Shown here piece by piece: positions 3,201 through 42,494 of a stretch of 64,000 nucleotides of DNA. Each line of letters starts with the position of its first letter. Positions within the stretch are counted from its first letter, which is position 1. Source of the DNA: a virus. Its lineage: Duplodnaviria > Caudoviricetes. A program made the position numbers and the translations under genes. The notes beneath the pieces were generated by a model. The model was given only the letters and a program-made list of their open reading frames with translations. It searched no databases and had not been told where the DNA came from. The stretch lies in IMG/VR virus record IMGVR_UViG_3300032007_000074, positions 7,749 to 71,748 of that record; one strand, written 5' to 3'.

Positions 3201-6200
3201 AGGTCGAGTCCCCTTCGATCCAGAATTGCATATCGGCATAACCGAGCCGGGAGTTGTACTGCCCTTTGCGGAAATTCTCGGCATAGGATTCTCCGGAGAG
3301 ATGGGAATTGATATTTGCCAGTGTAGTGGCTACGTCCGAATCATAATAGGGGTGATCGCTCGTAATCGGGAAGATAAGGGTAGAGTTCTGCCATACAAGG
3401 TTGTAGGCATCCTTGAACTCGTTTGTAGGCGATCCAGAAAGGACGGACCGGACGCTGTCTTGCCCGGAGGCCTTGTCCGTATCATATCCATGGCAGTTGC
3501 CGACTTCCAACCCCGTCAAATAGTTACCTTCCCCCAGGTCGATGGCAAGGCCTTCCTCATTGTAGAAGAAGTTCACATCTTCGGTCCATGGATAAGCGAA
3601 CTTGGCAAGGGGCTGGTTGTGGTCGGTCCCTTCCAGGGAAATGAGGGAGCTCTTCACGGCATCGAAGCCGAAGGTCGGCTTGTCCCCTTTGTCGGGGCCG
3701 ATTGTAAACAGGCCGATGAAGGTGTAGGACTCCTCGCCATTATTGTTGTGGTATTCGAAACCGAAAGCGGGGTACTGGTATACGGCAACCACAGGCCGTG
3801 CTGAGCCGCTGCCATCAGCAAGCGACTGCGCTTCGTTCCGCAAGCCGATCGCATCGTGCAGCTCCGTATAGGCACGGGTTGCGCCGATCTTATGGGACTG
3901 CATGGAGGAGGCCTGGTTGATCTTCGCCGTGATCCGCATGACCGGCGGATGGTTAGTCCCATCGAAGGCAACCGTCTTTGAGGATGAGGAAGGGCCCCAG
4001 CTGTACTGGTACTTGCCTCCCACCTTCGTTCTCTCCGTCACGTAGGAAACAGGCACCTTCTTCGTGTCGTTGGACTTATCAATGCGCCAGCGGACGTTCC
4101 ATCGATAATAATTCATCGATGTCGTGCCCTGTCCCATCGTCTCAACACCTTCAATCTTCCAGTCCCATTCCGGATGTGCCCCGAAGTGCATCTCGAGAGT
4201 GGAACCCCCAGTGGTCTTCTTACCCCAGCCGTTTGCGGCTGACGGAACACCGTTGCCCTCAGCCATGGAGACAATGAAGTAGTTGAATCCATTGTCCCGG
4301 ACAGCCTCGAAGTCCACGTTCGTGCCGCCGGAGTCCAGGACGGAAGCGAATTTCGCATCCATATCATTCCTCTCCGCGACAGTCTGGAGAGAATTGATAT
4401 AATTGGTCTGTATACCGGTATCGGAAAGCGCGACGGGGTAGTGACGGACGAAATAAAGGAACACGTCGCAGTGGTCCGATCCGATTACCAGATCCCCGTT
4501 GAAACCATTCCAGTCGGTAGAACTGCCATAGCTGAAGAGGAAGTTCTTGTTCCCGTTGATATACGCCTTTACGAGCCTGTTCGATCCCTCGTAGTTCGGA
4601 TTAATGGTCAAGGCAAAGTGCACGACCTCGTCGTCGCACAGATTTGTCCCCCTCTGAGTATCGTTCGATGCGTCCGTATCCGCGGAAGAGTGGACGGTGA
4701 TGTTGTTCGGCTTGATCCGGATGCCCCTGAAGCCTGCTGCGGAAGGATTGGGAGAGATTGTAATGACGTTTTCGTCATAGTTGGAGACATTCGCCACCTT
4801 GTAGCACAGTTCGATGGTACAGTTATCTCCGGAAAGAAGGTTGAATGCCGAATGGGGGAGGATCACCTTCGTCTTGGCCGGGATGCGAAGGCACGCACGA
4901 CCGTTATCGTCGGTCGTCCAACCGTCCATCCCGTTCATGAAATCCACCTCCGTCCAGGATGCCGCGAGCTCGGAATCGCCGACCACATTGACAATCTTTT
5001 CCTTGTTGGACTGGCCGTTATTGCGGTTCGCAGCAAGCATGTAGAAATCGTATCCCGTCGTGGGCGGGAAGACGGTTGAGTTGTCAAGCGGGATCTCCGC
5101 ACCGGCTGCCGCGGCTCCCAGCTCGATAGAGAATGCGATGGCGTATCCAGATCCTTCGATACCTGGCCAGAGGGCCTCGTACGTAAGCGTCTGTTCGGTC
5201 CTTGTGGCTACATCTTCCAGGGATGAGGATTCGGTGCTTACGACAGAGCTTCCGTGTTTGTGCTGGAAGGTGACAGTAAGGTCTGCGTAACTTGCGGAAC
5301 CGTCATAGACCGAATAGGCACACACCGGGGAAGAAGAGTAGTTGAAGATCTTGTCCGCGACGTTGTTGATGCATACAAGCTTTGCCGTATCGGTATCCTC
5401 GGCCGCGACAAACATGATCTGGTACTCGACTGGTTCGGACTCCAATGCAGCGGTCGAAACATGGGCCCGCACGGTGTACACGCCGGTGACGAGGTCCAGG
5501 ATAGGGCTTCCGTTCTCGATCTGGAAGAAATAAGGCGTATTGGCATAGGCGTTCGTCGTGCCAATCAACGCGGTGACATCGTCGACGACCTTTGTACCAT
5601 CTGCGCCAAATAAGGACAGATGCAGCGTCTTGCTGCCAGCCCCGGCAATCTTGAATCCGCCCAGGCGATGGGTGGCGCTGTCACTTTCCAGGACGGGAAG
5701 ATACCAAGTATTATTGAACAGCTCGACATAGAGTTCCGCGAGGGTGACGGTATAGACGAGCGCCTGCGAGACGGAACCATCCTCGGCGTCGAACTGGAAC
5801 TTGATTCGGTTCGTCCCGTTAACCAGGAACGAGAATACATCCAGCGATATGGTGGAGCCGGCGGCGTACAGGGCTCTTTCCGTGATGGGCGTATAGGTTC
5901 CGGTCAGCCCGCGGTCGATGAGGACGGTCACATAGCATCCGGTCTGGGTGTCGTTCCAGGAAGGGTCCGTGATGGACTTGGTCTGGACCCTGAAGGTCGT
6001 AGAGAGGGTAAGCGCCCCTGCATTCGTCGCCGTATTGATCTGCGTCGTCCCCGTGTTATTGGTGATATCCACGCGGTAGAGCGTGGATGAGAAGTTCATC
6101 GGGCAGGAGAACACAGGGAGGCCCGTCTGCGACGGGTCGTTGATGAAGCTGTTCCGGTCCTCCTCACTGGCGAAGAAGTACATCGTGTAGTTCGTCGGGT

Positions 6201-34914: not shown

Positions 34915-35559
34915 CTAAAACAGTGTCGGCTGTAATAGATATTCAGACCATTGATGAGCCATCGCATCTGCAATTCCCTGAAAGGTTTTAGATGCGGTTC
35001 TCGGATCGTGCGCTATACCGTGACTTCCTCCTTGTCCGCGAGAAAACCCGCCTGTGTTTGACGGCATCCAGGGTGTGTGCTGTTGAAGTATCTTCGTCGG
35101 CACCAACTTTGGAAGTCCCTTAAGCCAAAGCAGCGTCTTTTTGCTGTACGGTTCTCCAAACTCATAGGGTTGGATAGACTGAGATGGCGCCGGTAATCCT
35201 ACTATTCTCAACGGGACAGGATTCTCAATGGCTACATGCTCGCAATTGCAATTATAAAACTCCATGAAGAAAGCCTTTGCATCCATCGCCAGCCGATATC
35301 GCTCTGGCGAGATATGTCCAGCCGTCGGATACATCCACCGCGCACCTGCTTTACTCATATAAGTGCATGGAGGGTGCGCAATAATCAAATCCCATTTCTG
35401 CCCCCCCCCCCTAATTAGCGGCAAAACATCTTGCTTAAGGTGCCATTCTGGATGTCCACCACTGCAATCTTGTATGTCACAACTGTACGCCTCGTGTCCG
35501 AGTGCACGAAAAGCCTTACATACGGCCTGGCTTTCTTCACATGCTATCAATACTCTCAT
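34915..35559 (-). CDS. Phage DNA cytosine methyltransferase-like protein
   Basis: Start MRVLIACEESQ at 35559; EAYSCD, DLIIAHPPCTY (catalytic PC) and IENP motifs. Confidence 0.75.
   Translation of the reverse strand: MRVLIACEESQAVCKAFRALGHEAYSCDIQDCSGGHPEWHLKQDVLPLIRGGGQKWDLIIAHPPCTYMSKAGARWMYPTAGHISPERYRLAMDAKAFFMEFYNCNCEHVAIENPVPLRIVGLPAPSQSIQPYEFGEPYSKKTLLWLKGLPKLVPTKILQQHTPWMPSNTGGFSRGQGGSHGIAHDPRTASKTFQGIADAMAHQWSEYLLQPTLF
35401..35411 (-). repeat. G11 homopolymer inside the cytosine MTase
   Basis: Plus-strand C11, encoding R-G-G-G. Confidence 0.9.
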
Positions 35560-36148: not shown

Positions 36149-36161
36149 CTTTAAAAAAACA

Positions 36162-36239
36162 ATCCCCGAATTTTCATACAGAGGTCGCAGCTCTGCACTA
36201 CTCATCCGGGGTGTTAAATTTCTGCTCATCGTCTGCGAC
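36162..36239 (-). ncRNA. Putative pseudoknotted 5' leader RNA (copy 1)
   Basis: Position-for-position homologous to 42399-42476 with compensatory base changes. Confidence 0.65.
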
Positions 36240-36251
36240 ACGATGCTTATG

Positions 36252-36259
36252 CAAAGATA
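36252..36259 (-). promoter_or_regulatory. -7 element TATCTTTG of HNH cassette 1
   Basis: TTGCTATCTTTG, identical in cassette 2. Confidence 0.65.
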
Positions 36260-36265
36260 GCAATT

Positions 36266-37771
36266 TTATTTGAATAACGAAGGGCTGTTGTCCTTTTTTT
36301 TAGCCTTTACTTTCGAGAGTATCTGAGTGCGAAAGAAGTACCAGAATTTCGGTGATATGTTTGCTCCATGCTTCGTCCGAAGAACTTCTATAGCATGCAT
36401 AAAGGCTTCCTTTTGATTATCAGGATTCTTTATGCAAACTTGGACCAATATCCAGTTGTTAGATTTTCCTTCAAGTTTCTTTCGGGCGACATAGGACTCA
36501 AGGGATTCTTCATCTGCCTTAGCGACTATTTCGTTTAACTCAGCGTTGTAGATGTCTTGCTGCGTCGGCCAAACATACTGACAAAACTGGCACTGTTTCC
36601 ACGAAACTGGGACCATTTTTCCGCACTGTGGACATATTTTTGTAGGTGGTACACCGCCCCCCGCGCCAGTCGAATGCCAGACGGACCACACTCGGTCATC
36701 CTCATACCTGCCAAGCCTCTCATAGTTTCGGCCAAAGTCCAGGCAAAGAAACTCATTATCTTTCCCTGGCGCTATTCTCGATGCCCGACCCAGGCACTGC
36801 ATGTACTTCACTAGCGATGTCGTCGAGAACATCAGCATTACGACCTTGATGTCCGGAATGTCGATGCCGGTCGTGAAAAGACCGTAGTTGACCAATACTG
36901 GGAACTCTCCGTGGGCAAAAGCGTCCACGACATCCTTCCGTTCACCGCTGTACTCCTCGTTCTCGTCAAAGTCGCCGGAAAGGCAGTAACGAGCCTCAAT
37001 CCCGGCCTCACAAAACGCCTTCGTTAGCTCAATCGTCTGCTCTGAGCTGCAGCAGAACACCAAAGTCTTCTCTCCCGGGCAGATCCGCTTATAGTTCTCG
37101 ACGGCACCAACATATCTGGCCCGAGACTTGAACTTAGCCGACATCTGACTGAGATTGTAGTCACCGCGACCGTAACTCCATTCGACATCATCCATCGAGG
37201 GAGCGTCCAGCGAGAACAAACGGCATCGGCAGAGATAACCGAGATCAATCAGCTCCTTCACTTGCGGCCCAACAACGACGGCGCCATAGTCCATACCGAG
37301 CTGGCGCATCTGGCCGTAACGGGCCGGGCTAGCAGAAAGTCCGACGACATATGTCATATCGACCGCCGGCTGCTCGAATACGAAGTCAAACTCAGCCCTA
37401 TGGCACTCGTCCAGGATAATCAACTTGAATGTGTCGAACCAGTTCGCCCATTCGTCCTTTTTAAGCCGCTGACGAAGCGTCTGAGCCATCATACAGCAGC
37501 ACTCTGCATCGGGACACTTTCTGGTCTTAGCGAAGACTTCTGCTGCATTTACGCCCCATTTCCGAGCGTGATTGGCGTCTTGCTTCAATATTTCTTCGCT
37601 ATGCGCCAAAATCAAGACGCGGTTATGCTTACCAACGGACATTGATGCCATCGAACCGATAAGAACCCCTTTCCCGCTTCCGGTCGGGGACTGTACAATA
37701 ATATGCTTGTGCTTCGCGAGAGCCTGGCGGGACTCAGTAATAAGTGTTTGCTGGTATTCTCTTAGTTGCAT
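36266..37771 (-). CDS. SF2 DEAD/DEAH-box helicase
   Basis: LREYQ, PTGSGK, IILDECH, SAS, TTGIDIP and QCLGRASR motifs; C-terminal Zn ribbon. Confidence 0.9.
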   Translation of the reverse strand: MQLREYQQTLITESRQALAKHKHIIVQSPTGSGKGVLIGSMASMSVGKHNRVLILAHSEEILKQDANHARKWGVNAAEVFAKTRKCPDAECCCMMAQTLRQRLKKDEWANWFDTFKLIILDECHRAEFDFVFEQPAVDMTYVVGLSASPARYGQMRQLGMDYGAVVVGPQVKELIDLGYLCRCRLFSLDAPSMDDVEWSYGRGDYNLSQMSAKFKSRARYVGAVENYKRICPGEKTLVFCCSSEQTIELTKAFCEAGIEARYCLSGDFDENEEYSGERKDVVDAFAHGEFPVLVNYGLFTTGIDIPDIKVVMLMFSTTSLVKYMQCLGRASRIAPGKDNEFLCLDFGRNYERLGRYEDDRVWSVWHSTGAGGGVPPTKICPQCGKMVPVSWKQCQFCQYVWPTQQDIYNAELNEIVAKADEESLESYVARKKLEGKSNNWILVQVCIKNPDNQKEAFMHAIEVLRTKHGANISPKFWYFFRTQILSKVKAKKKDNSPSLFK

Positions 37772-42385: not shown

Positions 42386-42398
42386 TTTTGTAAAAGTA

Positions 42399-42476
42399 GT
42401 GCCCGAACTTTCAGTGAATGGGTCGAGCATCCGCCTACTTATCCGGGCATCCTATATTTCTTCCGCTATCTCGACC
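42399..42476 (-). ncRNA. Putative pseudoknotted 5' leader RNA (copy 2)
   Basis: Homologous to 36162-36239. Confidence 0.65.
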
Positions 42477-42486
42477 ATAGCAAGAG

Positions 42487-42494
42487 CAAAGATA
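42487..42494 (-). promoter_or_regulatory. -7 element TATCTTTG of HNH cassette 2
   Basis: TTGCTATCTTTG as in cassette 1. Confidence 0.65.

Follow-up and report, generated by a model that had tools for sequence, protein, structure and literature searches.

A covarying leader RNA with a kissing helix upstream of mobile nuclease genes in rumen phages

Introduction

Among the selfish genes of phages, free-standing homing endonucleases are the most common. To our knowledge, control of the harm done by homing endonuclease genes (HEGs) is understood only for a small number of T-even cases, which all rely on simple hairpins. In the T-even phages, HEGs are under the control of RNA hairpins upstream of the gene, of 5' terminators and of processing by RNase E (PMC2988022). 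Hairpins precede I-TevI, I-TevII, I-TevIII, segB, mobE of Aeh1 and seg43(25), while 5' terminators precede mobE of T4 and segF (PMC2988022). The T-even elements are single, gene-specific hairpins that sequester the Shine-Dalgarno sequence and carry a late promoter inside the hairpin (PMC2988022).

Related principles are found outside the T-even phages. HEARO, the omega-RNA of IscB, is a 200-300-nt guide RNA for a RuvC-HNH protein in IS200/605 elements. The c4 antisense RNA of P1 and P7 and the CI RNA of P4 are immunity RNAs processed from the leader of the transcript that they control; they act in trans after processing, and their targets overlap the ribosome binding site or act on a downstream terminator. 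The lysine riboswitch is built on a five-way junction with a conserved ligand pocket and precedes lysine genes.

The leader RNA analysed here occurs twice in a window of 64,000 nt, the whole stretch of DNA under study, which was taken from an IMG/VR phage genome of 71.7 kb, estimated to be 97% complete. It is probably the 5' module of free-standing HEG cassettes in rumen phages of about 70 kb with Bacteroidota-type promoters. The leader resembles the T-even structures in that an RNA fold lies directly upstream of a free-standing or intron-borne HEG together with a dedicated promoter, in that it presumably serves to restrict nuclease expression or fix its timing, and, as for seg43(25), in that a stable hairpin stands a short way upstream of a ribosome binding site that it leaves unsequestered (PMC2988022). 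It differs from them in its several helices, its covarying kissing helix and loop-E motif, its putative host-type promoter upstream of the fold, its unsequestered AUG, and in that one RNA family serves five nuclease families. Like c4 and CI, it is a short structured RNA from the 5' part of an operon, with loops complementary to sites in the same transcript and a complementary “code” that differs between related elements; unlike them, both partners are loops of one compact leader. Its GC-rich closing stem (CCC/GGG), A-rich upstream and U-rich downstream sequences recall intrinsic terminators and attenuators, from which it departs in its 48-nt hairpin, 5x4 internal loop, loop held in a tertiary contact, variable start of the U-run, and downstream genes that appear to need read-through. 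The likeness to the lysine riboswitch concerns architecture only, namely a loop E in one helix and a kissing contact that packs two hairpins. As with HEARO, a structured RNA is adjacent to and mobile with an HNH-domain ORF, but no Rfam family, with HEARO among them, reaches threshold for the leader, and its proteins are classical sequence-specific homing endonucleases.

Results

Architecture of the leader RNA

The features of both copies and of the neighbouring genes are collected in Table 1. When copy 1 and copy 2 were each folded alone, L1 was found to be the 7-nt loop of a 6-bp P1, and L3 the 7-nt loop of P3. From 5' to 3', the order of the fold is P1, the A-rich linker, P2, the AGUA-GAA internal loop, P3, the U-run and the AUG, and in copy 1 the non-coding sequence between the -7 box and the ATG (36148) of HNH1 amounts to 103 nt. 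The P1 stems of the two copies are different in sequence, CAUCGU/ACGAUG in copy 1 versus UGCUAU/AUAGCG in copy 2. The J1/2 linker is variable in length across the family in both alignments described below.

Table 1. Positions of the leader copies, their structural elements and the adjoining genes in the window.
Feature	Positions	Strand	Remarks
Copy 1 of leader RNA	36149-36245	minus	~97 nt
Copy 1 -7 box TATCTTTG (TAnnTTTG), Bacteroidota-type	36252-36259	minus	putative promoter; published consensus
Copy 1 P1 hairpin	36227-36245	minus	6-bp stem 36240-36245/36227-36232; MFE fold
Copy 1 loop L1 GUCGCAG, 7 nt	36233-36239	minus	apical loop of P1
Copy 1 J1/2 linker, A-rich	36212-36226	minus	semi-conserved GAAAUNU; alignments A3 and A4
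Copy 1 long hairpin P2/internal loop/P3	36164-36211	minus	MFE fold, alignments
Copy 1 P2	36204-36211 with 36164-36171	minus	CCC/GGG near-invariant in family
Copy 1 internal loop GAGUA/GAAA	36199-36203 / 36172-36175	minus	loop-E-like
Copy 1 P3	36191-36198 with 36176-36183	minus	
Copy 1 loop L3 CUGCGAC, 7 nt	36184-36190	minus	pairs with L1
Copy 1 U-rich spacer AUUGUUUUUUUAAAG, P2 to AUG	36149-36163	minus	terminator-like context
HNH1, free-standing NUMOD4-HNH homing-endonuclease gene, 195 aa	35561-36148	minus	Pfam NUMOD4 4e-12, HNH_3 4e-5
Helicase gene	36266-37771	minus	stop codon, then TATCTTTG box
Recoded 3' end of helicase gene, ..DNSPSLFK (stop)	36266-36292	minus	cassette-supplied; left edge of insertion
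Copy 2 of leader RNA	42386-42482 (with box: 42386-42494)	minus	covariance-model score 102 bits
Copy 2 -7 box	42487-42494	minus	
Copy 2 P1	42464-42482	minus	L1 GGUCGAG
Copy 2 P2/loop E/P3	42401-42448	minus	L3 CUCGACC
Copy 2 spacer	42386-42400	minus	
HNH2, NUMOD4-HNH-NUMOD3/NUMOD1 homing-endonuclease gene, 231 aa	41690-42385	minus	Pfam domain search

The leader had been recognized from its sequence in an original prediction, whose sequence blocks and N19 and N13 spacers are borne out in both copies. The shared TTGCTATCTTTG that it reported is also real, with two exact matches and one containing a single mismatch, where 0.3 would be expected. Its “pseudoknot” holds as far as the long-range pairing is concerned; the 5' partner is the loop of the covarying P1, which had been missed, and because both partners are hairpin loops (of P1 and P3), L1:L3 is a kissing helix rather than a simple pseudoknot. 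Similarly, the stretches GAURAGUAG and UGAAARUU are conserved as described, but they belong to one internal loop, GAGUA/GAAA, and are not linkers. This internal loop corresponds to AGUA/GAA, which we take to be the consensus of the loop-E (sarcin-ricin, bulged-G) motif. All 41 rows of alignment A3 show AGUAG and GAA unchanged, in keeping with that consensus, and GAGUA/GAAA thus matches a loop-E motif as judged by sequence.

Covariation and distribution of the leader family

IMG/VR was scanned with exact and degenerate patterns and then with a covariance model, which yielded 41 matches, 38 of them distinct (alignment A3). One metagenome scan contributed 72 further matches (alignment A4), bringing the family to 113 matches and 80 distinct leaders in IMG/VR virus contigs and metagenomes. 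A relaxed pattern scan returned a single true extra member (L021), and its remaining new matches were coding-sequence noise. Standard pairs fill 94.5% of the cells in A3, compared with 69% after shuffling and about 40% when the partner is slid by 1-3 columns; the corresponding values for A4 are 93.8%, 70% and 36-45%. Changes on both sides of a pair are observed for 23 of 29 pairs in A3 and 22 of 29 in A4, and all six pairs of P1 vary on both sides across the family. RNAalifold independently recovers P1, P2 and P3.

The kissing helix lay outside the covariance model, so that the alignments were not fitted to this pairing. Nevertheless, it is paired in 98% of cells in A3 and 99.1% in A4, with up to four pair types per column. 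L1 and L3 are perfect 7-nt Watson-Crick complements in 78 of the 80 leaders, among which 14 loop sequences are in use, whereas a 7-nt match arises in only 0.8% of draws when the loops are taken from different copies. Two leaders deviate: one match lacks its 5' end, and in a natural variant (L228, 7369-7471) P1 is absent and L3 is kept. Compensatory change therefore maintains the loop pairing, while the stems P1 and P3 both covary. Several G-U pairs are also kept on the leader strand in A3, namely G59-U82 (33 of 38 sequences), G51-U89 and U53-G87. These positions would be A-C mismatches on the opposite strand, and because the G-U pairs are conserved, the constraint acts on RNA of the leader polarity and not on DNA. 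The leader is confirmed as a real, covarying structured RNA family with a pattern far beyond chance, as had been proposed from the two copies, and the covariance model retrieves homologues in which the covariation is present.

A search of the whole window against Rfam 15 gave no match at the gathering threshold, so the check that had been suggested points to no known family. Searches in E-value mode with four leaders (copies 1 and 2 and two divergent members) returned inconsistent noise only. One candidate, FuFi-1, reached 16 bits (E 0.13) for copy 1 against a threshold of 59.6 and was absent from the other members; it was rejected. Full-text literature searches found no description of the leader RNA, and the family is apparently undescribed. 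When the cassette was compared with cultured phages by blastn, only the HNH core was matched. A terminator/promoter scanner did not flag the leader; it uses a sigma-70 promoter model and a loop limit of 3-8 nt, and is therefore blind to this element.

The contigs that bear leaders are rumen or gut metagenome assemblies, and the sequencing runs that contain the window phage derive from bovine or goat gut; no RNA run is listed among them. Of four runs whose contigs were compared with the window, one bears a metatranscriptomic label but is probably DNA, and the four yielded no transcript information. Near-complete phage genomes carry one to four leader copies in the genomes checked. In a scan of 185,579 bacterial and archaeal species genomes, 58 of 59 stretches were chance matches in unrelated genomes, and the one true match (L203) lies on a 20-kb contig of a Bacteroidales MAG. 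The helicase is nearest to those of Parabacteroides phages (41%), followed by Cellulophaga and Flavobacterium phages. The helicase relatives and the TAnnTTTG box together indicate that the host probably belongs to the Bacteroidota. No leader was found in Parabacteroides phage PF672P2, the nearest cultured relative by helicase.

Insertion of the cassette at the helicase gene

Eighteen loci that encode close relatives of the helicase were compared at the helicase 3' end. Three of these sites (L134, L145 and L143) are empty: the helicase ends in ..EDSSPKLF (stop), the next phage gene follows within about 40 nt, and there is no box, leader or nuclease. At the filled sites, comprising the window and at least eight loci (among them L139, L144, L146, L136 and L137), the helicase ends in ..SPSLFK (stop), and all carry, in this order, CCTTCGTTATTCAAATAA, the promoter box, the leader and an HNH ORF. 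It can be observed that HNH1 finishes with eight codons that are the displaced original end of the helicase, EDSSPKLF (stop), and that the HNH gene of L139 likewise terminates in the displaced helicase 3' end, ..SPKLF (stop). In addition, contigs from other sequencing runs skip from 35589 to 36348/36398, i.e., they lack the cassette. Because the empty sites lack all three parts and the filled allele is recoded, the alignments show that promoter, leader and ORF were evidently inserted as one unit into the helicase 3' end, with recoding of the target. The view of promoter, RNA and nuclease gene as one cassette, which had originally been put forward, is thus upheld. The presence/absence polymorphism, with an altered target in the filled allele and an ORF of a homing-endonuclease family, is, to judge from these alleles, the usual signature of intronless homing.

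The helicase site holds three different leader loop codes, and the HNH proteins found there in relatives share only 33-43% identity with HNH1. Among the loci compared, none offered a clean empty allele for copy 2. A C5-cytosine-methylase-like gene (34915-35556, minus strand) is located directly after HNH1 and starts 2 nt past its stop. It ends in ..QPTLF (stop), followed by GCACGGGATTTGAA, which is the sequence after the helicase stop in the empty sites, and filled-site relatives such as L139 are without it. This gene resembles an additional insertion at that helicase-end site.

Exchange of the open reading frames behind the leader

The majority of the ORFs behind the leader, about 60, encode NUMOD4-HNH proteins. 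The others comprise Zn-ribbon HNH (phrog_374), DUF723-HNH (phrog_953), EndoVII-like (phrog_2340) and GIY-YIG nucleases, one N6_N4 DNA methylase, two small ORFs (one in L010) and a decayed HNH remnant, so that nucleases of at least five protein families follow the same RNA. Conversely, among 80 loci with HNH1 homologues the leader is present in only two and absent from 78, and a third NUMOD4-HNH gene in the genome of the window phage lacks it, as do other NUMOD4-HNH genes in the same phages. The proposed tie of the leader to NUMOD4-HNH genes is consequently not sustained.

The comparison of L084 (1331-2326) with L126 (reverse strand, 5363-6081) is the clearest with respect to exchange. Promoter and leader are 97.7% identical and the flanks 81-83%, while the ORFs, NUMOD4-HNH and EndoVII-like, respectively, are unrelated and the sequences diverge exactly at the AUG; the leader is here more conserved than both flanks and ORF. 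The pair shows the leader in the apparent role of a homology arm for nuclease replacement, with ORFs swapped at the AUG. Because near-identical leaders precede unrelated ORFs, the leader is a module common to unrelated nucleases. An autoregulatory switch bound by the HNH protein, or a nuclease cofactor, had been suggested; both are unlikely, since the leader is shared by unrelated nucleases.

Two loci illustrate leaders that have lost their gene. In L119 (3732-4054) a solo leader with promoter remains, the nuclease ORF having been deleted, and the next phage gene now follows the leader; in L132 (7796-8040) the leader is followed only by a C-terminal DNA-binding remnant of the HNH gene. Both leaders keep a perfect fold. 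In the multi-copy contigs (G000, G001 (L125), L005, L008/L011, L110 and L132), the copies compared differ in their L1/L3 loops, and G001 holds four different loop codes. By a rough estimate from code frequencies, a within-genome difference would arise by chance in about 13% of cases, and copy-specific loop codes within one genome or contig are only suggestive.

Sequence context of promoter, spacer and AUG

A TAnnTTT[GA] box is found 3-19 nt (mostly 3-9 nt) upstream of P1 in 75 of 79 leaders, and on the basis of the published consensus we infer that the TAnnTTTG box functions as a promoter. One leader without a box (L227, 883-1689) provides a different arrangement: it occupies 960-1055 behind a tRNA-Met gene (883-956) and ahead of a GIY-YIG ORF, with P1 beginning 4 nt past the tRNA gene, and its 5' end would arise by tRNA processing. 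No TAnnTTTG box was found inside the leader in either copy on either strand; a phage-specific promoter in the J1/2 GAAAUAU is possible. On the leader strand from the HNH1 stop down to about 32850, no intergenic TAnnTTTG box was found, so that the genes downstream of HNH1 appear to need read-through.

In 77 of 79 leaders, P2 is separated from the AUG by 10-16 nt. The longest U-run in the spacer is at least 4 nt in 71 of 79 and starts 0-7 nt past P2; its start and the gap between it and the AUG vary by some 7 nt each, whereas the two added together vary less. Position -3 is A in 53 of 79 leaders. The conserved helices do not sequester the AUG, which is located 10-16 nt 3' of the last conserved pair. 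Its predicted accessibility is 0.5-0.7, and the predicted pairing of the spacer is ambiguous, about one quarter with J1/2 and about one quarter with the A-rich first codons.

A second, unrelated leader class precedes other nuclease genes of the same phages, with NUMOD4-HNH in four of five loci (L288 1538-1663, which is the G000 contig at about 1538-1663 and outside the window, L290, L291, L292, and L140 2870-3010). A TAnnTTTG box is present, and a covarying outer stem, behind which lies a U-rich stretch, encloses UAGG, a 6-bp hairpin whose loop has 8 nt, and a segment X of 6-7 nt. This segment is complementary to a downstream X', present in most loci as two exact copies, the second of which ends 3-4 nt before the AUG, and X and X' covary (five examples). 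This second class looks like a switch that sequesters the translation start.

Discussion

Alternative explanations

The same leader could be read as a stand-alone small RNA gene, whose abundant product of about 100 nt has a function of its own (as a decoy or protein sponge) or acts through its copy-specific 7-nt loops on the cassette's own nascent transcripts, in the manner of the antisense RNAs c4 and CI. We consider this rather unlikely, and equally so its corollary that the nuclease is made only by rare read-through. It speaks for the small RNA that a promoter, a compact RNA with a GC-clamped closing stem behind an A-rich tract, and a U-run form the canonical layout of such genes, that the leader is better conserved than flanks and ORF, and that intact folds persist where the nuclease ORF has been deleted (L119) or has decayed (L132), observations of which the layout and the persistence also count against our preferred reading. 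The 14 loop codes, their differences between the compared copies of one genome or contig, and the second leader class, whose segment complementary to downstream sites resembles the c4/CI layout, point in the same direction. However, both complementary loops reside in one molecule about 40 nt from the AUG, so that a trans target is not evident; the downstream co-oriented genes need read-through; the fixed AUG distance points to a translation link; and within-genome code differences are expected by chance at the rate roughly estimated above. That the RNA is bound by the nuclease encoded behind it, and so serves as an autoregulatory operator or as a cofactor, appears very unlikely. Loop-E motifs are common protein-binding sites, and the presence of one here would suit this explanation. 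I-TevI does autoregulate, though at the DNA level (PMC2988022). Against such binding stand the occurrence of the same fold before five unrelated nuclease families and a methylase, the near-identical leaders before NUMOD4-HNH and EndoVII-like ORFs, and the lack of a leader at most NUMOD4-HNH genes, including others in the same phages.

The compact tertiary fold with some invariant unpaired nucleotides could also belong to a self-cleaving ribozyme or an RNase processing signal that frees the nuclease mRNA from upstream transcripts. Processing is known for segB and segG of T4, which are cut by RNase E (PMC2988022), and it would account for the 5' end of the leader that begins 4 nt after a tRNA; yet no known ribozyme family matches in Rfam, hardly any unpaired positions are invariant apart from the loop-E consensus, with a few semi-conserved linker positions, and the promoter of the leader itself would already yield a separate transcript, which makes this explanation highly improbable. 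We attach as little credence to a riboswitch or other ligand-sensing attenuator, in spite of the promoter-proximal position, the terminator-like hairpin, and the combination of loop E and loop-loop contact that is shared with the lysine riboswitch. J1/2 is variable in both length and sequence, invariant unpaired positions are confined to loop E, A3 and A4 show no alternative helix (anti-terminator) with covariation, and the genes downstream are selfish nucleases and not metabolic or transport genes, with no riboswitch match in Rfam. A DNA-level element, in which nested inverted repeats would give the cassette a site for recombination, cruciform formation or protein binding, is hardly credible: the leader is indeed the shared homology at ORF exchange, but the conserved G-U pairs work on one strand only, the orientation relative to promoter and AUG is fixed, and compensatory changes keep pairing and not sequence.

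Proposed function of the leader

The reading that we prefer, and rate as somewhat better than even, is that the leader is a portable, cis-acting element controlling the expression of its cassette independently of the protein family encoded. Transcription from the host-type TAnnTTTG promoter would start at or just before P1, and the RNA would fold into a compact body of P1 and P2/loop-E/P3, locked by the 7-bp L1:L3 kissing helix. Acting in cis, as we infer, the leader would set the amount of nuclease mRNA and protein, as well as the timing, and would also supply the shared homology for exchanging nuclease ORFs.

Two routes of control are the likeliest, alone or in combination. Tentatively, the leader may act on translation or stability, with a rigid structure at -11 to -16 and P1 at the extreme 5' end modulating ribosome access or 5'-end stability; because the AUG distance is kept so constant, a link to translation is pointed to. 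Attenuation fits almost as well, and would proceed by leaky intrinsic termination at the U-run past the GC-clamped P2. The near-invariant CCC/GGG clamp, the A-rich tract upstream and the prevalent U-run are terminator-like. Polarity argues against a strong terminator, the HNH1 stop being immediately followed by the C5-methylase gene, and a plain insulator or terminator would require nothing as elaborate as the loop-E motif and the tertiary kissing contact. Motif and contact may hold the fold together or offer a protein-binding site, but that control depends on a factor of phage or host origin binding loop E seems most improbable. Bacteroidota hosts do not employ Shine-Dalgarno pairing, and both translation control and attenuation must therefore differ there.

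A more speculative version, for which we see only a slim chance, is a self-addressed regulator, in which the loop code of the ~100-nt RNA acts on the nascent transcripts of its own cassette only. If this were true, each cassette in a genome would possess a negative-feedback circuit of its own, orthogonal to the others and a small counterpart, carried by the cassette, of P1 c4 and P4 CI immunity, and the second leader class, with its downstream targets at the AUG, would be a variation on the same principle.

Conclusions

The 14 orthogonal 7-bp kissing pairs presented by one scaffold may be of use in RNA structural work and in Bacteroides synthetic biology. With respect to the phages themselves, one tertiary-structured RNA travels with five unrelated nuclease families whose ORFs appear to be exchanged at its boundary, and the leader thereby opens to test the idea of a portable RNA “expression adaptor” for the selfish genes of Bacteroidota phages.
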